The notes: generated by a model from the letters alone, not told the origin. A stretch of DNA of 64,000 nucleotides from Candidatus Eiseniibacteriota bacterium (GCA_963717505.1 OY970342.1:1824001-1888000); one strand, 5' to 3'. Shown: positions 11,680 through 20,633, counted from the stretch's first letter. Numbers and translations are program-made.

Positions 11680-13008
11680 TCAGCGCGCTTCGGACCGCAG
11701 CCCGCCGGGTTTCCGGAAATACACCACCCGGTTCTTGGGGGGCATCTTGGCGCGCAGCAGGGCTTGGTTGGCCGCTCGCCACAGGTCGCTGGTGTTGCTG
11801 GCGCCGTCCGGGTAGAGGGCGACTCCGATGCTCACCGAAACGCTGACCCGGTGCATCTGCCGGTCGAGTGACTCGACGTGCACGATCTGCCGCTCGACCA
11901 GTGAGCGCAATCGCTCGCAGATGGTGACGACATCGTCGACCTGGACCGGTGCCGAGAGCAGGATCGCGAATTCCTCGCCGCCCCAGCGCGCGACCGTGTC
12001 GAACGGCCGCACCGCCGTGCGCAGCGTGTGGGCGACGTGCACCAGCACCCGATTGCCGGCTTCGTAGCCGTAGGTGGTGTTGAAGTTCTTGAAGTTGTCG
12101 ATGTCGGCGATACATAGCGCGAACGAAGCGTGGTCGCGCTGGGCGCGTGCAGTCTCGCTCGACACCTGCCGTTCGAAGTAGGGGCGGTTGAACGCGCCGG
12201 TCAGCGAATCCACGAACACCAGCTGCTCGATGCGCGCCGATCGCCGCCACGCGATCGCCCAGCAATCGGCGAGCAGCGACAGCAGGGCCAGCTCGCGGGT
12301 GCCGAACACGCCCGGCTCCGGGCTGGTTGCTTCGACGTGTCCGAGCACTTCCGCGTCTTCGCCGCACACCGCGGCCGCGGCGACCGAGCGCACGCCCTGG
12401 CGGGAGGCTTCGGGCTCGAGCCGAGGTGCTCGCGTCGTGTCGGCGCAGACCACGACGTCGGTCGGGTGGGCGAGGACCTCGGCGGCGAAGTCGGGATCGA
12501 TCGACCGCGGGGTCGCGGGATCGTCCACCGGTGCGCGCGGCACGAAGTGCACACTCTGAGCGCCGAGCAGCTCGGTTCCAGTCTGGTCGAGCAACTCGGT
12601 GAGGCTGACCCGCGGCGACCCCTGGCCGGGATCCGGCAGCGTCATGGTGTCGTCGAGCCGCAGCAGCCGGCGAACGTGGTCGAGGCTGGCATGGGCCTGG
12701 ACGATCAACGCGACGCGAGCGCGATACTCGAGCCCCTCCTTCTCACGCGCGCCGGGCAGCTCGATCGCGATGAGGTCGAGACCGCGTCCCTGATAGCGGA
12801 CGGTCTCCGAGCCTGGGGTCGCGGGCAGGCGCGTCAGCGTGCCGAGCTGCTCGAGCTGGCGCAGGGCCTGCAGGCTCGCCTGCTCGATCTGCGACGACAC
12901 GCCCGAGTGCAGCGCGCGCTGGACGCGCTGGCGGTCGGCGCTGGGCAGTGAGTCGAGCGGCAGCAGCCGCTCGAGCAAGTGACGGAAGTCGATGGGCTTT
13001 CGGTTCAT
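11680..13008 (-). CDS. GAF-GGDEF diguanylate cyclase
   Basis: DSLTGAFNR, DIDNFKNFN..YG..GN, RPFD I-site, RWGGEEF; start placed at MNRKPIDF. Confidence 0.9.
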   Translation of the reverse strand: MNRKPIDFRHLLERLLPLDSLPSADRQRVQRALHSGVSSQIEQASLQALRQLEQLGTLTRLPATPGSETVRYQGRGLDLIAIELPGAREKEGLEYRARVALIVQAHASLDHVRRLLRLDDTMTLPDPGQGSPRVSLTELLDQTGTELLGAQSVHFVPRAPVDDPATPRSIDPDFAAEVLAHPTDVVVCADTTRAPRLEPEASRQGVRSVAAAAVCGEDAEVLGHVEATSPEPGVFGTRELALLSLLADCWAIAWRRSARIEQLVFVDSLTGAFNRPYFERQVSSETARAQRDHASFALCIADIDNFKNFNTTYGYEAGNRVLVHVAHTLRTAVRPFDTVARWGGEEFAILLSAPVQVDDVVTICERLRSLVERQIVHVESLDRQMHRVSVSVSIGVALYPDGASNTSDLWRAANQALLRAKMPPKNRVVYFRKPGGLRSEAR

Positions 13009-13164
13009 GGGTCGTCCTGCGTCCCTGACGGGCGGCCCCATCCCTGGATCGTGTAACCCGGTGTGTGAGCGAGAGGTCAAAGCAGAGGGGTTCAGACGAA
13101 CCCAGATTGAAAGATGCGCAGCGATTCTAGCATGCAGCGGCATGCAGCGCGGCGGCCGCGCATG

Positions 13165-13253: not shown

Positions 13254-13883
13254 CTAGTTGAGGCGAACCAGCCGGGAAATGCTCATCCCGAGCGGGCTGG
13301 CAAACCGGAGGAAGTACACCCCGGCGCTCAGCGGACGGCCATCGCTCCCGCGTCCATTCCAATCGACACGGCTGGCGCCGCGCCCCAGGGGGCCGCGGTG
13401 GAGAACCACCTGCTGGCGACCCTGCAGGTCGTAGATCGCCACCTCGGCGTCGACCGGCGCCGTACCGGGGCGTCCGCTCAGGAACAACTGGACGCGCGCC
13501 GCCCCGGCTCCCGGGTTGGGATGGATCTCGGCGCGAATCGGCCGGACCTGATCGGCGGAGATCGTGACCGGATAGGGCCCGAAACTCTGGAAGCTGCCGT
13601 TGGCCAGCTCGAGGTCGAAGCGGTACCAGTAGGTCGCCCCGGCCACGGCTTCGAAATCGTCGACGTAGCACGTGCCAGTACAAAGCGTGCTGGCGTCCGA
13701 CACGCGATCGAACGGACCGGCTTCGAAGCCCGAACGCAGGATGGTGTAGCGCGATCCGGGGAAGTCGCCGTTGAGTCGCACGTGCGGCACGCCCTCTCGA
13801 TACTCGACGTGGACACCCGGGTCGGCGACTGCCAGTGTCGCGACCAGCATCGTGGCGGCGACCATCGCATGGGCTCGCTTCAT
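13254..13883 (-). CDS. Small secreted protein: FN3-like domain plus FlgD-Ig/T9SS-like C-terminal domain
   Basis: Signal MKRAHAMVAATMLVATLAVA; D..AVAGATYWYR; HPNP...YDLQGR...WNGRGSDGRPLSAGVYFLR. Confidence 0.75.
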   Translation of the reverse strand: MKRAHAMVAATMLVATLAVADPGVHVEYREGVPHVRLNGDFPGSRYTILRSGFEAGPFDRVSDASTLCTGTCYVDDFEAVAGATYWYRFDLELANGSFQSFGPYPVTISADQVRPIRAEIHPNPGAGAARVQLFLSGRPGTAPVDAEVAIYDLQGRQQVVLHRGPLGRGASRVDWNGRGSDGRPLSAGVYFLRFASPLGMSISRLVRLN

Positions 13884-14108: not shown

Positions 14109-14576
14109 ATGAGGCTGTCGGAACTACTCAATCCCAAAGCGGTTGCTTTGCACCTCAAATCCAAGAACAAGCGCGAGGCGCTGGCGGAGCTGGTCGAGGT
14201 CCTCGAGGCCGCCCACGGCTTCGACAGCCAGGGGGAGATCCTCGACCGGGTCATGCGCCGGGAGGCCATGATGGCCACCGGCATCGGCAACGGCGTCGCG
14301 ATCCCCCACGGCAAGGCCCGCTCGGTCGACCGCATGGCGGCCGCGGTTGCCGTCTGCCCTGAAGGCATCGACTACGAGGCCGAGGACGGACACCCGGTCA
14401 GCCTGATCTTCCTGTTCATCTCGCCCGAGAACGCGACCACCCTCCACGTGCGGGCTCTGGCCAGCCTGTCGCGGCTCATGAAGGAAGAGTCGGTGCGCAA
14501 CAGCCTGCGCGAGGCAGCGACGCCCGAGGCCTTCATGGCCGCCCTCCTCGCGGCGGAGAGCGTCTACAGCGTCTAG
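14109..14576 (+). CDS. PTS EIIA component (fructose/nitrogen-regulatory PtsN-like)
   Basis: MRLSELL...RREAMMATGIGNGVAIPHGK (phospho-His)...HVRALASLSRL. Confidence 0.9.
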   Translation: MRLSELLNPKAVALHLKSKNKREALAELVEVLEAAHGFDSQGEILDRVMRREAMMATGIGNGVAIPHGKARSVDRMAAAVAVCPEGIDYEAEDGHPVSLIFLFISPENATTLHVRALASLSRLMKEESVRNSLREAATPEAFMAALLAAESVYSV

Positions 14577-14621
14577 AGTCGTTCAGGTTCACGGCTGGCG
14601 CGCGCCGGCCGCCATCGGCCC

Positions 14622-15284
14622 ATGAGGGGACGAGACGCGATGCGCTTCCTGGAGTCCTGGACCGTCCTGCCGCTGGTCGACTTGATCCGGCTGGCTTTGC
14701 CGGTGGCCGGGACCCTGCTGATGGTGCTCTTGCCCGGCCGGCGAGCCGGCGGGGTCGCCGCCGCGATCGTGATGATCGGGGTGGCCGCCAACCCCGAACT
14801 GATCCCTGCCCTCTGGCTTCATGTGGCGTGGGTCGCCCTGTGGGGGGCTCTGGTCTGGCAGACGTTCCGGGGTTCCTCGCCGCCCGGCCGGCGGCTCGCG
14901 TTCTTCGAGTCCGGGGTCATCGGCGCGATCCTGGGTGCGTCCCTGCTCGTGCTTCTCCTGGCCGCGATCGAACGCCAGGCGCTGCCCCACGACGAAGCCC
15001 GGCGCGCCGCAATCGGGCTCACGCTGCTCGCCCTGGGTCTGCTGCACCTGATGATGCGACACCACACGATCCGCGCCGGGCTGGCGTTCGCCGCCCTAGG
15101 GCTTGGTCTTCAGGTGATCGAAGTCGCGGCCTGGGGCAGCCTGATGCCCGGCTCGGCCGGCCCGCCCGCGGCCGTTTGGTTTGCGACGCTGGTCGCGGTC
15201 ACGCTCGCCGTGCGCATCGGACACATCCGCGAGCGAGTCGCCGGCAGCCCGTGGGTCGGGGATGCACACGACCTCCATGACTGA
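14622..15284 (+). CDS. Divergent NuoK/HyfE-like membrane protein
   Basis: About 6-7 TM; C-terminal half follows the NuoK pattern (LMMRHHTIRAGL...IRERVAGSPWVGDAHDLHD); start may be ATG 14640. Confidence 0.55.
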   Translation: MRGRDAMRFLESWTVLPLVDLIRLALPVAGTLLMVLLPGRRAGGVAAAIVMIGVAANPELIPALWLHVAWVALWGALVWQTFRGSSPPGRRLAFFESGVIGAILGASLLVLLLAAIERQALPHDEARRAAIGLTLLALGLLHLMMRHHTIRAGLAFAALGLGLQVIEVAAWGSLMPGSAGPPAAVWFATLVAVTLAVRIGHIRERVAGSPWVGDAHDLHD

Positions 15285-16686
15285 GGCGCGCGCCGGTACC
15301 GCGCGGGTCGCGAACGGTTCAGGCGCGACTCCCTCCTGGCCCGCGGTGCTGCGCGATCGAACGCGTCGGTTGTTTCCCGACGCCCGGCAAGTCGGCGTCC
15401 TGGCCTGTGGACTCGGCCTCGCAAGTCTCGCGCACCCCTCGCTGCTGACCACCGCACTCGGCGTCGAGCTGCTGGCGCTCGCGTTCTGGCTGTGGGCACG
15501 GGCCGCCCCCGACGCCGCAGAGCAGATCGGACGCTGGGCGTGGCTGCGCCGGCCAGCTTCGGCGTTGTGGCTCGCATTTGCTCTCGATGCGATCCTGCCC
15601 GCCATCGGCTCGGGCCCCCACATCTCCGCGGTCCAGCCCCTGCGGTTGGTTCAGGCGGCGGCGGTGGCCTGGGCCGGACTCGAATTGCTCGCCTCGCTGC
15701 CGCTGGTGCGCACGTTCTCGGATCTGCCGGGTCCTTACCTCGACGTGCGCTCGTGGCTGCCGGTGCTGATGCCGACCACCGGTTTTCTCGTGCTCTGGCG
15801 ACACAGCGAGCTGTGGACCAACGTGTCGCCGGTGCGCGAGGCTGCACTGCTGCTGCTCGCGATCACCACCGTGCTCGCGACGTTGCGCGCGTTCGCGCGC
15901 CGGACCTGGACGGCATCCTTGCGCTGGCTGGTGCTGATCGACTGCACGCTCGGCGCGATGGTGCTGGCCAGCGCGCTCCTGCCCTCCGACGTGACGCTCT
16001 TACTATGGGTCGCCGCCACCGGCGCGCACACGTTTCTCCTGGCCGGCGAACTGCGCGGGTCGGCGCCGCGCCGCGGCGCGATGCTCACGCGGTTGTGGCG
16101 GATCGCGAGCTGGACGGCACTCGCCTGCCTGGCCTGGCCCGCGGCTGCGCTCAATGGTCCCGAACACCACGGCGGCATCGGCACGGCGGTGCGCGTCATG
16201 CTCATGATCTCGACGCTGTTCGCAGGCTGGATCGTGGTCGGGCGCATGCTCCCGGCCGACGAGCGGCGAACCGTCATGCGCCCCGAGCACGTGATCACCA
16301 TGAGCCATGCGACCGCACTCCTCATCCTGGTCCTCGCATTCCTGGCGATCGGCATGGCGTGGTGGGCGGGGTTCGAGCCGACGATCCCAACCACGCTCGC
16401 TGCGATCGGACCTTTGGCGATCGGCGGCTGGACCGCAGTGCTGAGTCGCCAGCAACGCACGTTGCGGCGGCGGATCGAGCAGATGGTGGCGGCATTTCGC
16501 GGTCCCGCGCGCAAGATCTTCGAGCTGTTCGTCCGGCTCGAGGGCGCGATCGTCGCGTGGCTCGGCGGGCTGACCCGTGCGCTGGCGCGGCCACTACACG
16601 ACCTGCACACCGGGGATGCCCAGGAATATCTGCTGTTCCTGGTCGGGCTCGCGGTGCTGGCGATGATCATGCAGGTCCTGCGATGA
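15277..16686 (+). CDS. Divergent NuoL/MrpA-like antiporter-fold membrane protein
   Basis: Multi-TM; LGVELL (TM5 Glu), FLLAGEL; C-terminal amphipathic helix plus LHTGDAQEYLLFL like NuoL LQTGxxxxY. Confidence 0.6.
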   Translation: MTEARAGTARVANGSGATPSWPAVLRDRTRRLFPDARQVGVLACGLGLASLAHPSLLTTALGVELLALAFWLWARAAPDAAEQIGRWAWLRRPASALWLAFALDAILPAIGSGPHISAVQPLRLVQAAAVAWAGLELLASLPLVRTFSDLPGPYLDVRSWLPVLMPTTGFLVLWRHSELWTNVSPVREAALLLLAITTVLATLRAFARRTWTASLRWLVLIDCTLGAMVLASALLPSDVTLLLWVAATGAHTFLLAGELRGSAPRRGAMLTRLWRIASWTALACLAWPAAALNGPEHHGGIGTAVRVMLMISTLFAGWIVVGRMLPADERRTVMRPEHVITMSHATALLILVLAFLAIGMAWWAGFEPTIPTTLAAIGPLAIGGWTAVLSRQQRTLRRRIEQMVAAFRGPARKIFELFVRLEGAIVAWLGGLTRALARPLHDLHTGDAQEYLLFLVGLAVLAMIMQVLR

Positions 16687-16701
16687 CAGGTCCTGCGATG
16701 A
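16672..16701 (+). repeat. Perfect 15-bp tandem duplication at a gene junction
   Basis: CAGGTCCTGCGATGA x2. Confidence 0.9.
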
Positions 16702-17885
16702 CCTTCGCGACCCTCGCGGCTTCTCCACTGTTTCCGCCGGCGCTGGCGCTGATCGCCGCACTGCTCATGTTCTCGCTCGACCGGCGCGACCGGCTGCATG
16801 CGCTCGAGTGGGCGACCGGGGTCATTCTGGTGCTGCTCGCGGTCGGCCTGGTGCGCGCGCCGGTGTCGGGGCCGACCTGGTCGCTGCTGGCGCCCGGCAT
16901 CGTCGCGGCGTTGCTCTCGCGCGATCGCGACAGCCTGCTCGAGAGCGAATGCGCATTGAAGCTGCTGTGGGTATTCGGGGCGGCAATTGCGTTGTCGTGG
17001 GCTGGCGTTCGCTTGCTCGAACTCTCGACCGGCACCGAAGTCGTGCTCGAACAGTGGGCGGTGCTCGAGCTGGGCGTCGATCCCGAGTTCCTCTGGCAAG
17101 CGGCCCTGCCGTTGTCGCTGGTGCTTGGCATGGTCTTGCTCGGCGGCGCGCCGTTCCATTTCTGGGCCGCGGACGTTCTTCAGGGTGCGCCGGTCTGGCT
17201 GTCGCCGCTGGCGGTGATCGTGATCCAGATCACCGGCGCCGGCTGGCTCAGCTCGCGACTCGCCGGGATCGCGCGATTCCCCGAAGCCGCGCGTGCGGTC
17301 GCCGGCTGGCTGGCAATGGGCGCGTTTCTCGCGTTCGCCGTGGGTGCCGTGACGTTGTTCGTCCAGCGACGGCCCGAGCGGCGTGTCGGTACGCTGGCGA
17401 GCTTGAACGGCGGGTTGTTGCTCGCCGCCCTCGCGTTCGCGCGTGGTGGCGCGAGTGCCGGTGTCGATCCCGACTTCGTTGCACGCTGGACGGCGCACCT
17501 GGTTCTGGCCCTGAGCGGTGCCGCGATTCTCGCGCGCTTCGTGCCGGTGGCCACCGCGGGTCCCGAGCCGACACCGGTGTTGTTCCGCTCGCACCCGGTG
17601 ACTGGACTCGTGGGATTGTTCGCACTCGCTTCGCTCGCTGGTGTTCCGGGAACCCCGGGCTCGGCGATCTGGCGAGAGGTCGCAGGCATGGTGGCGCGCG
17701 GCGGCTGGATCTGGGTGACCTTCGCGCTGTGCGCCGCGTGGTTGGCGGCGCTGGGCGCGGTGATCCGCCAGGCGCGCGAGGCGTTCGGGATCAGCCGGCC
17801 GGGGCCGGCGCCCCGGGTGCCGTGGCAGCCGCGTCTCGCGATCTGGGTGTGCGCGGCGGGGCTGGTGGTCCTCTCGCTCCGCTAG
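16683..17885 (+). CDS. Divergent NuoN-like (Proton_antipo_M fold) membrane protein
   Basis: ECALK, APFHFWAADVLQGAP, LFRSHP, ASLAGVPGTPG; alternative start 16698. Confidence 0.75.
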   Translation: MTGPAMTFATLAASPLFPPALALIAALLMFSLDRRDRLHALEWATGVILVLLAVGLVRAPVSGPTWSLLAPGIVAALLSRDRDSLLESECALKLLWVFGAAIALSWAGVRLLELSTGTEVVLEQWAVLELGVDPEFLWQAALPLSLVLGMVLLGGAPFHFWAADVLQGAPVWLSPLAVIVIQITGAGWLSSRLAGIARFPEAARAVAGWLAMGAFLAFAVGAVTLFVQRRPERRVGTLASLNGGLLLAALAFARGGASAGVDPDFVARWTAHLVLALSGAAILARFVPVATAGPEPTPVLFRSHPVTGLVGLFALASLAGVPGTPGSAIWREVAGMVARGGWIWVTFALCAAWLAALGAVIRQAREAFGISRPGPAPRVPWQPRLAIWVCAAGLVVLSLR

Positions 17886-18008
17886 ATTCCCCTCGACCCG
17901 GGGCCCTGCCCGGGTTCAATATCAATGAGCGACCCGGTTCGTACGCCCTCGGTTTCCCCGCCATGGCGTTCACGGATGTGCTACTCGATGGCCACCGAGG
18001 AGGAGCCC

Positions 18009-20633
18009 GTGAGCAACGTCATGTTCGTTCGTCGTGCATGCCTCGCGACGACTTTGTGCGCGGTGTTGTTGCCCGCCGGCACGTCCCGGGCCGCGTCGTT
18101 TGGTGAGTTCATCGATCCACATCCCGCGCCCGGCAATCAGTTTGGGTCGCACATCGTGCCGTTGAGCACGGGCAATGTGGTGATCACCTCACCCTATGAC
18201 GACGCCGGCGGAAACGACGCGGGTGCGGTCTATCTGTTCAACGGCGCGACCGGGGCGTTGATCAGCACGCTGCGCGGAAACAAGGGCGGCGACAACGTCG
18301 GCATCGACGGGGTCACGGTGCTCGCCAACGGCAATTTCGTGGTCGCCAGCCCGAACTTCGACAACGGTCTGGTCATCGACGGTGGTGCGGCGACCTGGTG
18401 CAGTGGAACGACCGGGGTGAATGGAGCGGTTTCCGCCGCCAACAGCCTGGTCGGGACCGTGGGTTTCGATCAGGTCGGCAGTGGTTACGTGGTGGCACTC
18501 ACCAACGGCAACTATGTGGTTGGCAGCCCGATGTGGAACCGCCTCCCGAACTTCCGCGTGGGGGCGGTGACCTGGGGCAACGGCACGACCGGAATCAGCG
18601 GAGCGGTTTCGCTCGCCAATAGCCTGGTTGGCTCCCGAGTCGACGACAGGGTCGGCGAGAAGGTGATGGCGCTTTCCAATGGCAACTATGTGGTCGGAAG
18701 CTGGCTCTGGGACAGCGGTACGATCGCCAACGCCGGGGCCGCGACCTGGGGCAATGGAGCCATCGGCGTGAGCGGTGCGGTCTCCGCCGCCAATAGCCTG
18801 GTCGGCTCCAATTCTGACGATCATGTCTCGGACTACATGTTCCGGCTCTCGAACGGGAACTACGTGGTCGCCAGCCCACGCTGGAACAACGGCTTTACTG
18901 CCGACGCGGGTGCCGTGACCTGGTGTAACGGCACGACCGGAAAAGCAGGGGTGATCTCCGCCGCCAACAGCCTGGTCGGCACGACGGCGGACGACAACGT
19001 CGGTTTCGGTAGCTTTGTTCCGCTCCCGAACGGTAACTATGTAATCGGGAGCGTGAGTTGGGACAACGGCGCCGTGGTCGATGCGGGCGCGGCAACCTGG
19101 GGCAGCGGCACGACCGGCGTGACTGGCGTGGTCTCCGCCGCGAATAGCCTGGTTGGCTCGACGGCTGCTGATCGTCTTGGTTACGAGGTGACGGAACTCG
19201 CGAACGGCAACTACGTGGTCACCGGCCGGGACTGGGACAACAGCGCCGTCGGCGACAGCGGTGCTGTCGACGCTGGCTTCACGGCTTGGGGCAACGGGAT
19301 GACCGGTGTGAGTGGGGTGATCTCCGCCGCCAACAGTCTGGTCGGCACGACGGCCGGAGAAGGAGTTGGCTACGTTGTGACGGCGCTAGCGAATGGCAAC
19401 TACGTGGTTGGCAGTCCCGGCTGGGACAACGGCGCCTTGGTCGACGTCGGTGCCGCGACTTGGGGCAACGGGACTACCGGGGTGAGCGGGGTGATCTCCA
19501 CGACCAACAGCCTGGTCGGCTCATCGGCTCATGATGTGGTCGGCGCCACAGTGGCGGCGCTGACGAACGGCAACTATGTGGTCGGCAGCTCGGGCTGGGA
19601 TGACGACGGGGTTGCCGACGTGGGTGCAGCGACCTGGGCCGACGGCACGACCGGACTTGTTGGCGTGGTTTCCCCCGCCAACAGCCTGGTTGGCTCGCAA
19701 ACCGGCGATTGCGTGGGCACTGCCGTGACGGCTCTTACGAACGGCAACTACGTGGTGGTCAGTATGTGGGACAACGGCGGTGCCGCTGACGCGGGTGCGA
19801 CGACCTGGGGCGACGGCACCACCGGGGTGACCGGGGTGGTCTCCGAAGGCAACAGCGTGGTTGGTTCGTCGTACGGCGATGGTGCCAGCATGACCGTGAC
19901 CCCGCTGTCGAACGGCAACTACGTGGTGGCCCGACCGTTTTGGCACAACGGCGCGGTCATGTTCGCGGGTGCCGTGAGCTGGGGCGACGGAGCGTTCGCG
20001 GCGACCGGCGTGGTTTCGTCCGCCAACAGCCTGGTCGGGCTCAATGCCAACGACTTCGTCGGCAGCCATGGGGTGACGGAGCTTTCGAACGGCAACTACG
20101 TGGTGGCCAGCCCAGCCTGGGACAGGGGCGCCGTCGTCGACGCCGGCGCCGCGACCTTGGGAGACGGTGCGAGCGGGTCGAGCGGCGGCGTCTCCGCCGC
20201 CAGCAGCCTAGTGGGCGCCGCGGAGAATTCGAGCCTGGCATTGGTCGTTGTGGACGCCGTGAACAACACATACATCGCCAGTTTCCTCACGGATGGTGGC
20301 GGGCGGGTGCGGGTCAGTTCGCAGGACGAGTCCAATCTCGTGAGCGTCGCCGACAACTTGGAGCCAGCGCAGCGGACGATCGGTATACGACCAAATCCCG
20401 CGCGCGGAAACGCACTTCACGTGGCGTTCGCTTTGCCGACCGCGGGCCCCGCGCGGCTCGAGCTGCTGGACGTCAGCGGGCGGCGCGTGCTGGCGCGCGA
20501 GGTCGGCTCGCTCGGCAGCGGACAGCACACCGTGAATCTGGCCGAGGGTCGAAGGGTCGCTCCCGGGATCTACTGGGTGCGGCTGACCCAGGGCGCGAGT
20601 CAGCAGAGGGCCCGCGTGGCGGTGATCGAGTGA
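18009..20633 (+). CDS. Secreted DUF5650-type repeat protein with C-terminal sorting domain
   Basis: About 11-12 repeats of LxNGNYVVxSxxW...GAxTWGxGTTGVxGVxSAANSLVG; C-terminal RPNP...LDVSGRRV...PGIYWVRL; GTG start after GAGGAG. Confidence 0.8.
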   Translation: MSNVMFVRRACLATTLCAVLLPAGTSRAASFGEFIDPHPAPGNQFGSHIVPLSTGNVVITSPYDDAGGNDAGAVYLFNGATGALISTLRGNKGGDNVGIDGVTVLANGNFVVASPNFDNGLVIDGGAATWCSGTTGVNGAVSAANSLVGTVGFDQVGSGYVVALTNGNYVVGSPMWNRLPNFRVGAVTWGNGTTGISGAVSLANSLVGSRVDDRVGEKVMALSNGNYVVGSWLWDSGTIANAGAATWGNGAIGVSGAVSAANSLVGSNSDDHVSDYMFRLSNGNYVVASPRWNNGFTADAGAVTWCNGTTGKAGVISAANSLVGTTADDNVGFGSFVPLPNGNYVIGSVSWDNGAVVDAGAATWGSGTTGVTGVVSAANSLVGSTAADRLGYEVTELANGNYVVTGRDWDNSAVGDSGAVDAGFTAWGNGMTGVSGVISAANSLVGTTAGEGVGYVVTALANGNYVVGSPGWDNGALVDVGAATWGNGTTGVSGVISTTNSLVGSSAHDVVGATVAALTNGNYVVGSSGWDDDGVADVGAATWADGTTGLVGVVSPANSLVGSQTGDCVGTAVTALTNGNYVVVSMWDNGGAADAGATTWGDGTTGVTGVVSEGNSVVGSSYGDGASMTVTPLSNGNYVVARPFWHNGAVMFAGAVSWGDGAFAATGVVSSANSLVGLNANDFVGSHGVTELSNGNYVVASPAWDRGAVVDAGAATLGDGASGSSGGVSAASSLVGAAENSSLALVVVDAVNNTYIASFLTDGGGRVRVSSQDESNLVSVADNLEPAQRTIGIRPNPARGNALHVAFALPTAGPARLELLDVSGRRVLAREVGSLGSGQHTVNLAEGRRVAPGIYWVRLTQGASQQRARVAVIE

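Follow-up and report, generated by a model that had tools for sequence, protein, structure and literature searches.

Introduction

The Lys/Glu axis of antiporter-like subunits is central to current models of proton transfer in complex I, Mrp and membrane-bound hydrogenases. Mrp (CPA3) is a stand-alone complex without a redox arm, in which an L-type subunit with a lateral helix lies beside an N/M-type and a K-type subunit (cf., in part, PMC7419157 and PMC7733839). In E. coli NuoN the axis residues are numbered E133, K217, K247 and K395, and the substitutions K247A and K395A nearly abolish activity, according to the accessible portion of PMC13073174. In other bacteria, the EIIA(Ntr) protein of the phosphotransferase system (PTS) controls K+ transport via TrkA and KdpD, as stated in the accessible portions of PMC9239096 and 10.1101/2023.07.05.547876. 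Here, we report an operon in which these two themes meet. It lies at positions 14109-17885 of a 64,000-nucleotide stretch from Candidatus Eiseniibacteriota bacterium (GCA_963717505.1, OY970342.1:1824001-1888000; hereafter the window), and consists of a gene for an EIIA(Ntr)-like protein (ptsN below) followed by the genes of three membrane proteins, which we call A, B and C. The three proteins are relatives of HyfE/NuoK, NuoL and NuoN, they are conserved, and they are always linked to the EIIA gene. This lineage-specific trio, devoid of the pump lysines, probably does something new.

Layout of the operon

The operon comprises four intact, tightly packed genes, without stops or frameshifts:

14109..14576, plus strand: EIIA(Ntr)-like gene, first of the operon; 155 residues, PF00359
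14640 (or 14622)..15284, plus strand: gene of protein A, a seven-helix membrane protein with HyfE architecture; 214 residues
15277 (or 15262)..16686, plus strand: gene of protein B, a NuoL/ND5/MrpA-like antiporter-type subunit; 469 residues
16683..17885, plus strand: gene of protein C, NuoN/ND2/MrpD-like and N-terminally shorter; 400 residues

The gap between ptsN and A is 45-63 nt, A and B overlap by 8 nt, and B and C by 4 nt (ATGA). A preliminary description of this DNA, made from the sequence alone, had proposed three intact, overlapping membrane-protein genes in a K-L-N-like order, directly downstream of a PTS EIIA gene; the open reading frames (ORFs) on the plus strand, their coordinates and the PF00359 match of the first gene agree with it. 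Simple scans detected neither a sigma-70-like promoter nor a convincing terminator at the operon.

Protein C is a remote NuoN homologue without the proton-transfer residues

Profile comparisons make C a clear, if remote, homologue of NuoN, despite the family cut-offs that it misses. Against PF00361 it scored 12.7 bits (E 0.073), below the gathering cut-off of 21.5 bits, with the genome's five canonical members scoring 152-307 bits. The curated cut-offs of the NuoN families (TIGR01770, NF004441 and related) were also missed, TIGR01770 giving 38.8 bits (E 5.5e-10) against a cut-off of 332.6 bits. In a PDB profile search, however, the profile of the C family (43 sequences) matched M. smegmatis NuoN (8e9g_N; E 4.9e-8), and comparison by hhalign with a 25-sequence NuoN alignment headed by E. 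coli NuoN gave a probability of 99% (E 4.8e-18), C 76-399 corresponding to E. coli 141-469. At its N-terminus, C lacks about 65 residues relative to NuoN. Its sequence contains the motifs ECALK, PFHFWAADVLQGAP and SLAGVPGTPG, in line with the structural motifs (ECALK, PFHFW..DV.QGAP, SLAGVP) originally noted by eye.

The numbering of E. coli NuoN, laid on the 43 family sequences, shows which residues were retained and which were replaced. Retained were NuoN E154 (C E89, 43/43), K158 (K93, 43/43), H224 (H159, 42/43), D229 (D164, 43/43), Q291 (Q228, 43/43) and R296 (R233, 43/43). The Lys of transmembrane helix (TM) 8, K247, is replaced by Gln (Q182) and the TM12 Lys, K395, by Trp (W330), both in 43/43 sequences. 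At the column of the TM7 Lys (K217), C has a Leu when aligned with M. smegmatis NuoN by HMMER, and hhalign leaves a gap there. Charged residues occur in at most one of the 43 sequences across columns 140-158 of C (TM7a segment), and in none across columns 67-79 (TM5 segment, where E133 is expected, 21 residues before E89). This near-absence of charge indicates that both the TM7 Lys and the TM5 Glu are absent from C. The ECALK motif carries the counterparts of NuoN E154 and K158, not the TM5 Glu. The axis by which the functional class is recognized (TM5 Glu, TM7 Lys, TM8 Lys/His, TM12 Lys/Glu) is thus not found in C, and the substitutions first read by eye (Leu, Gln and Trp at the three lysines, no TM5 Glu) were recovered, the first of them as either a Leu or a gap.

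Protein B has the fold of NuoL

B is far less recognizable by sequence. It matched no Pfam, NCBIfam or PDB profile, and PF00361 gave no hit at E <= 1. An exhaustive hidden Markov model (HMM) search of 1.84 billion representatives with the B profile returned 96 proteins, all of at most 473 residues, which were its own family and fragments of it; no canonical NuoL or MrpA was among them, nor any bridging relative. In the ESM Atlas, B fell in its own cluster; the other matches, two unnamed clusters (0.92) and clusters of PF00361 (0.89), we take as leads only.

The structural model is more informative. The AlphaFold2 (AF2) model of B, built from 42 sequences, has a mean predicted local distance difference test (pLDDT) score of 87.4 and a predicted template modelling (pTM) score of 0.84, and ends in a 51-residue lateral helix (394-444) followed by a final TM helix (448-468). 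In Foldseek, all 23 matches at E <= 1e-3 were NuoL/ND5-type chains (best 7p7c_L, 1.2e-5), and MrpA (7d3u_A) came next, at 5e-3. VIA-align gave Z scores of 22-25 over 370-420 residues, residues 30-468 of the model corresponding to E. coli NuoL 109-589, including the lateral and the last helix; NuoL TM1-3 are therefore without counterpart in B. The NuoL/ND5/MrpA-type antiporter-like fold is defined by a core of the fourteen-helix type with broken helices, a long lateral helix and a C-terminal anchor helix. Apart from the first three helices, these elements are present in the model, so that an antiporter fold, whose absence would have spoken against the original proposal, was recovered for B by structure (Z 22-25) as it was for C by profile (99%).

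Sequence alignment of B to NuoL by hhalign covered B 164-461 and NuoL 257-604 (E 1.3e-3, probability 18%), and the B tail PLHDLHTGDAQEYLLFLVG aligned with the NuoL consensus ..QTG..q.Y. A permissive hhalign run, itself of low confidence, placed B E64 on NuoL E144 (the TM5 Glu) and K229 in a gap; the constant offset of 79 in the VIA-align ranges agrees with the equivalence of E64 and E144. Three carboxylates in hydrophobic helices of B are near-invariant among the orthologues (E64 in 80/80, E136 in 79/80, D222 in 75/80), and no Lys is conserved at >=90% in the same 80 sequences. Of the residues of the proton-relay axis, only the TM5 Glu (E64) appears to be kept in B, where equivalences are of low confidence. 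The loops carry the invariant Arg/Trp motifs RWAWLRRPA, PRRG and ERRxxMRP. B had been described as keeping the TM5 Glu, the transverse helix and the LxTG..xY tail while lacking the axis lysines, and this matches what we found: E64 in all orthologues, the 51-residue helix, the tail LHTGDAQEY and no conserved Lys.

Protein A weakly resembles HyfE and NuoK

No Pfam, NCBIfam or PDB profile matched A; PF00420 was absent, and a PF00420 scan of the genome was also silent at this gene. The AF2 model of A (pLDDT 88.4) has seven TM helices, and found no match in Foldseek at E <= 1e-3. In a VIA-align search of 48,161 representatives, residues 116-214 covered whole NuoK chains (8qby_K and 3rko_K, Z 7.2, root-mean-square deviation 2.6, 97-98 residues). 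The same range matched 6u8y_g, NdhE (7eu3_E) and MrpC (6z16_c) with Z 6.1-6.5, and NdhG (NuoJ type) matched residues 11-172 with Z 6.8. All of these Z scores, 7.2 included, are weak and of a size common for helical bundles. Several independent NuoK homologues lie end-to-end on the same range of A, which lends added weight to the likeness to NuoK. Profile comparisons were in register and non-significant: NuoK E 0.07, E. coli HyfE E 0.42, and the HyfE-like protein of the genome itself E 0.13. The layout is also that of HyfE: E. coli HyfE has 216 residues with PF00420 at 127-216, and A has 214 with its NuoK-like fold at 116-214. The modest fold scores (Z 7.2) and the shared HyfE architecture weakly suggest that residues 116-214 of A are NuoK/MrpC-like.

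In the columns of A that correspond to NuoK E36 and E72 (A151 and A187) there is no acidic residue, the positions being occupied by Ala/Gly and Val/Ile. The absence of both glutamates from the NuoK-like part had been noted before; yet position 158 of A (window 15109-15111), located mid-membrane on the same helix and seven residues (two turns) beyond 151, is Glu in 54 of 92 relatives and Gln in 35, the protein of the window having Gln. In addition, E90 of A is invariant. Taken over the three proteins, the loss of the Lys/Glu axis that had been claimed for the whole trio stands entirely for C and largely for A and B, with B keeping three carboxylates, the TM5 Glu among them.

Predicted assembly of B and C

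Complex prediction covered B and C. With alignments of our own making, the pair scored 0.68 (0.70, 0.61 and 0.68 in the individual runs), against 0.00 for the best control; the mark for this score is reached by 58 of 80 solved complexes and by 2 of 110 mismatched pairs, counts that are rough when such alignments are used. The runs shared at least 38% of contacts, and the partner pLDDT was at least 76. On the B side, the predicted interface consists of residues 36-118, E64 among them, and 437-441, at the end of the lateral helix; on the C side it consists of residues 223-227, 293-294 and 322-370. Antiporter-like subunits are placed next to one another in this canonical way in complex I and Mrp. 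The prediction supports binding of B to C.

We also observed His/Asp motifs of a DLH type in two of the proteins. The tail of A carries a nearly invariant DAHDLHD (15245-15284), and B carries (R/H)DLHTGDAQEY at the end of its lateral helix (16597-16629); neither has a counterpart in the tails of canonical NuoK or NuoL. In an A-C-B complex, the two motifs could lie close together on the cytoplasmic face, and could form a metal site or a docking site for EIIA.

Distribution and selection

A collection of 5.8 billion proteins contains 100-300 homologues for each of the three proteins, and the named ones come almost solely from Candidatus Eisenbacteria. In JGI annotation, C is labelled "NADH:ubiquinone oxidoreductase subunit N", and A and B are "hypothetical". 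We examined 105 loci with B. Both ptsN and A were upstream of B in all 81 loci with enough upstream DNA, and C was downstream in all 71 with enough downstream DNA, so that the ptsN-K-L-N synteny seen in the window extends to related genomes. In a sample of 151 genomes from the phylum, B was present in 55 of the 59 genomes of the window's GTDB family and in none of the 91 genomes of 16 other families; five near-complete genomes of sister families had no B-like gene at E <= 0.1. The operon is therefore narrower than a phylum trait, and was seen in a single GTDB family.

Seven loci in TPA-assembled records (L102, L108, L109, L137, L141, L150, L161) carry the labels Saccharimonadaceae, Limnocylindria, Udaeobacter, Verrucomicrobiia, Acidiferrales, Terriglobales and Methylomirabilota. 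Six of them have ptsN, A and B, plus C where the contig suffices, and L161, which is cut, has B and C only. Since their B identities (35-47%) are typical of Eisenbacteria, the other-phylum labels are probably wrong, rather than a sign of transfer.

The metagenomic relatives of the window's operon have at most 61% identity over the best aligned segment, and 39-48% when matched over most of B. Because no closer relatives of this operon were returned, the ratio of nonsynonymous to synonymous substitution rates (dN/dS) was measured on close pairs among the relatives, using the Nei-Gojobori method and 13 disjoint pairs that are 85-96% identical in B. The medians were:

ptsN: 0.085
A: 0.114
B: 0.146
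C: 0.133

Over the 40 closest pairs, which are non-independent, values for A, B and C ranged from 0.03 to 0.41. Purifying selection and conserved gene order together indicate that the three genes are functional; the residues that took the place of the lost ones are fixed as well. Chance ORFs, as may occur in a genome of 70% GC, were also considered for A, B and C, and rejected given the 100-300 homologues of each and the low dN/dS.

These data bear on the possibility that A, B and C are the decaying, functionless relic of an old nuo, mrp or hyf duplication. The loss from C of every residue regarded as essential for pumping and the very low or absent Pfam and NCBIfam scores would fit such a relic. 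A relic, however, would be expected to show dN/dS near 1, and the values here are 0.03-0.41 over all pairs, with medians of 0.11-0.15; the residues that replaced the lysines are invariant, gene order was kept in 81/81 and 71/71 loci, and the AF2 models are confident (pLDDT 87-88). Moreover, among 60 B matches in 56 of the 151 sampled genomes only one holds a stop. We consider decay to be a very improbable explanation. The stop-bearing match (G089:C57:19026-20414) has a single in-frame TGA in an otherwise full-length B, and may reflect a sequencing error or a pseudogene.

Complex I and hydrogenase-like clusters elsewhere in the genome

The genome (4.16 Mb in one contig, 86.7% complete by marker count) encodes an intact nuoA-H-J-K-L-M-N set outside the window (C1:39184-46584). 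Its NuoK has both glutamates (in IELML and AAAEVA), and its NuoN is among the 25 of 25 sequences with Glu and Lys at all axis columns; a canonical nuoAHJKLMN set with the canonical Glu/Lys residues, the presence of which had been left to be checked, is thus encoded alongside the trio. In this cluster, nuoA is directly followed by nuoH. The genes of the peripheral arm, nuoB-G and nuoI, must have another location. The NuoJ of this genome has a C-terminal extension of at least 50 residues.

A second cluster (C1:690458-698471) resembles Hyf and group-4 hydrogenases. It encodes two PF00361 proteins and a 213-residue HyfE-like protein with a weak PF00420 match, as well as ORFs that we judged by eye to be NuoH-, large-subunit- and small-subunit-like. 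A gene combining HTH_17 and PTS_EIIA_2 domains (239 residues) lies directly upstream. This makes two places in the genome where an EIIA-type gene stands ahead of a complex I-like machine, which suggests PTS control of complex I-type machines. We also asked if A, B and C were recent copies of the Hyf-like genes of the genome; no significant likeness to these emerged that exceeded the likeness to Nuo. A search for Mrp small subunits, limited to MnhG (PF03334), was negative in this 86.7% complete genome and in the 59 genomes of the family.

With two such clusters present, the trio might consist of accessory subunits that attach to complex I or the Hyf-like complex, or of alternative ones that take the place of resident subunits there, for instance as a regulated extension or brake. 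A, B and C are homologous to subunits of both complexes, the genome has the nuoAHJKLMN and hyfB/C/E/F/G/I-like clusters that would receive them, and the HTH_17 and EIIA_2 gene in front of the hyf-like cluster suggests that EIIA-type control of complex I-like machines recurs in the genome. We nevertheless regard this explanation as improbable. Each resident cluster already has genes for a complete complement of L, M/N and K/E subunits, and neither B nor C has TM1-3 or the residues with which a proton relay could be carried on. The 51-residue lateral helix and the predicted direct contact between B and C fit a self-contained unit instead. Finally, the trio is by profile no closer to the Hyf-like proteins of the genome than to Nuo, and it always travels with ptsN, away from nuo and hyf.

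The EIIA protein and a regulatory PTS

The first gene of the operon matches PF00359 with E 8.5e-35 (120 bits). It scored 90.7 bits against the PtsN equivalog TIGR01419, under the cut-off of 138.7, and likewise missed the cut-off of the FruA-IIA NCBIfam model. Its end-to-end alignment with E. coli PtsN has 30% identity, in which H67 aligns with the His of the PtsN GIGNGIAIPHGK motif (residue 73, alignment numbering). This His is the phosphorylation site of PtsN, and H67 is invariant in 85 of 85 orthologues. Within the window, no rpoN adjoins the EIIA gene; linkage to rpoN, a phospho-acceptor His in a GxAIPH motif and the lack of a cognate EIIB/C count among the marks of EIIA(Ntr).

EI, HPr and HprK are encoded at about 3.868-3.872 Mb of the genome, which has three EIIA_2 proteins in all, and no EIIC was found in a search of this 86.7% complete genome limited to the PF02378 family. 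With EI, HPr and HprK present and no PF02378 EIIC, the PTS looks regulatory.

Neighbouring genes

Three genes flank the operon:

11680..13143, minus strand: GGDEF diguanylate cyclase (PF00990, E 5.9e-38), a conserved divergent neighbour, possibly co-regulated
13254..13880, minus strand: small secreted protein with a weak FlgD_ig match, in the upstream flank
17925..20633, plus strand: 902-residue secreted protein with 11 DUF5650 repeats (E 2e-231) and a weak Por_Secre_tail match (type IX secretion system tail), in the downstream flank

No nuoM, nuoH, nuoA, hydrogenase or Mrp small-subunit genes adjoin the operon, as first described; its flanks hold secreted proteins and the GGDEF gene. The synteny of the two secreted proteins (17925-20633 and 13254-13880) with the operon is not conserved. 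The GGDEF gene, in contrast, is a recurrent neighbour: it was found upstream on the opposite strand in 46 of the 48 related loci with at least 3.5 kb of DNA upstream of ptsN, at a distance of 150-3213 nt (median 508), and often just 150-300 nt from ptsN, which suggests a shared control region. The N-terminal region of the GGDEF protein, of 300 residues, has no Pfam match.

Alternatively, the trio might be a signalling or scaffolding device without transport. The antiporter fold would then be a conformationally responsive platform that anchors or sequesters EIIA, and perhaps the GGDEF cyclase, and conveys the state of the membrane to PTS(Ntr) and cyclic di-GMP. Several findings are consistent with this: the proton relay is lost in C, with neutral or hydrophobic residues fixed in its place (Q182 and W330 in 43/43), no Lys is conserved in B, the Arg/Trp loop motifs of B (RWAWLRRPA, PRRG, ERRxxMRP) are invariant, the invariant His/Asp tails of A (DAHDLHD) and B (DLHTGD) are possible docking sites, the GGDEF gene is divergent upstream in 46/48 loci, and the PTS is apparently regulatory only. 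On the other hand, the B carboxylates are kept in 75-80 of 80 orthologues, and A keeps its mid-membrane Glu/Gln, which is unexpected for a pure scaffold. An assembly of 1,080 residues and about 30 helices, under purifying selection along its length, would also be a costly anchor. On balance, a device without transport seems rather unlikely to us.

Discussion

We tentatively favour the reading of the trio as a stand-alone A-C-B ion device linked to EIIA. The four-gene operon encodes a trio descended from the antiporter module common to complex I, Mrp and group-4 hydrogenases. A, C and B would form a stand-alone complex in the order NuoK-NuoN-NuoL or MrpC-MrpD-MrpA, in which the lateral helix of B would be just long enough to clamp one neighbouring subunit, and which would not depend on the canonical complex I, whose genes lie elsewhere in the genome. 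Since the lysine relay is gone (the three Lys columns of C hold Leu or a gap, Gln and Trp, and its TM5 Glu is missing; no Lys is conserved in B; A is without the NuoK glutamates), canonical proton pumping is not expected of the complex. What remains are buried carboxylates: E64 (at the predicted B/C interface), E136 and D222 in B, and E90 and Glu/Gln158 in A. Given that the three in B are near-invariant and that most relatives of A have Glu158, a carboxylate-based ion path is possible. The most likely role would be that of a cation-conducting or cation-exchanging device centred on B, with C kept as a structural and coupling partner, and with activity set by the phosphorylation state of the co-encoded EIIA.

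The preliminary description had proposed a repurposed pseudo-antiporter complex. Its fold, the lost axis, its conservation and the EIIA linkage all hold; the specific roles suggested for it (non-pumping, scaffold, assembly factor) are not established, in view of the buried carboxylates.

Some observations weigh against an EIIA-linked ion device as we picture it. The identity of A is weak, Z scores below 8 being common for helical bundles and the sequence profiles not significant. The equivalences in the N-terminal half of B rest on a low-confidence alignment and on aligned ranges, not on residue-level superposition. As the predicted B/C interface is the canonical one, the score of the pair may partly reflect memory of solved complex I and Mrp structures. 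Linkage to the EIIA gene is not proof of binding, and judged from gene neighbourhood the divergent GGDEF gene (46/48) would be an equally plausible partner of EIIA. The regulatory character of the PTS, for its part, depends on one EIIC family in a genome that is 86.7% complete.

A wider proposal, possible but doubtful in our view, is that the trio represents an unrecognised class of machine derived from Mrp and complex I, in which carboxylate/arginine chemistry replaces the lysine relay. It would either transport cations under gating by EIIA(Ntr), or sense membrane energy and feed the regulatory PTS and a cyclic di-GMP cyclase. If this were true, the trio would be a natural example of an antiporter-like module that does something other than lysine-mediated proton transfer, and C, naturally "dead", would be kept for the sake of conformational coupling. 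Fold, neighbours and lateral helix have long been kept under selection while Gln and Trp were fixed, a natural experiment on the scaffold without the relay, and on the question of which elements of the fold are there for assembly and coupling and not for proton chemistry. The scope of such lessons is limited by the narrowness of the family, which was seen in a single GTDB family, and by the organisms being uncultured.

Comparison with known systems

In the open-access literature that we searched, we found no link of EIIA/PtsN with antiporter-like subunits, nor any account of this Eisenbacteria system; PtsN and NuoL occurred together only as incidental mentions in transcriptome papers. One article (PMC11323493) mentions Eisenbacteria, complex I and Mrp together, and its subject, in the accessible portion, is a different phylum, Ca. 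Effluviviacota.

Among described systems, the distal arm of complex I (NuoK/NuoN/NuoL; ND4L/ND2/ND5) is like the trio in several respects. C keeps E154, K158, H224, D229, Q291 and R296 of E. coli NuoN. B has the NuoL fold, the TM5 Glu, the lateral helix, the final anchor helix and the LxTGxxxxY tail. The last 99 residues of A superpose on the whole of NuoK, and the predicted B/C interface is the canonical interface between neighbours. Unlike complex I, the trio has no redox module and no NuoH, NuoA, NuoJ or NuoM, and has just two antiporter-type subunits; B and C lack the N-terminal helices, and the sequences are 10-21% identical. Of the NuoN axis, all three lysines and the TM5 Glu are gone, as are NuoK E36 and E72, and B has no conserved Lys. 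Furthermore, the trio is co-encoded with EIIA in a genome that holds a separate canonical complex I set.

The MrpA-MrpD-MrpC core of Mrp is similar to the trio in lacking a redox arm and in having one L-type subunit with a lateral helix beside an N/M-type and a K-type subunit. The structural match of B is Dietzia MrpA (7d3u_A, Z 22.7), and that of A is MrpC (6z16_c, Z 6.1). In contrast to Mrp operons, in which MrpE/F/G and MrpB accompany MrpA/C/D, the membrane-protein genes here are A, B and C only, without MrpB/E/F/G; the C-terminal extension of MrpA is missing, and the Lys/Glu relay conserved in MrpA and MrpD is absent.

With Hyf (HyfB, HyfE and HyfF of hydrogenase-4/formate hydrogenlyase-2), the trio shares its set of an E-like, an L-like and an N-like subunit, and A shares the length and two-part layout of HyfE. 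It differs from Hyf in having no hydrogenase, NuoH-like, NuoB/D-like or ferredoxin genes in the operon, and in the non-significant profile comparisons of A with HyfE (E 0.42 for E. coli, 0.13 for its own genome), and a genuine Hyf-like cluster is present elsewhere.

As for PTS(Ntr) and its targets TrkA and KdpD, the likeness lies in a PtsN-like EIIA with a phospho-acceptor His, in the presence of EI, HPr and HprK with no detected EIIC, and in the genetic tie of EIIA to a homologue of a membrane ion machine. Unlike here, the targets known so far bear no relation to these proteins, and their genes do not share an operon with ptsN. The EIIA of this operon, moreover, is not beside rpoN and scores under the PtsN equivalog cut-off, and its interaction with the trio is suggested by synteny only. 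As judged from the genes, then, the fold and the neighbour logic of a complex I/Mrp module would be what is known in this operon, and the minimal composition, the lost defining residues and the regulatory partner what appears to be new.

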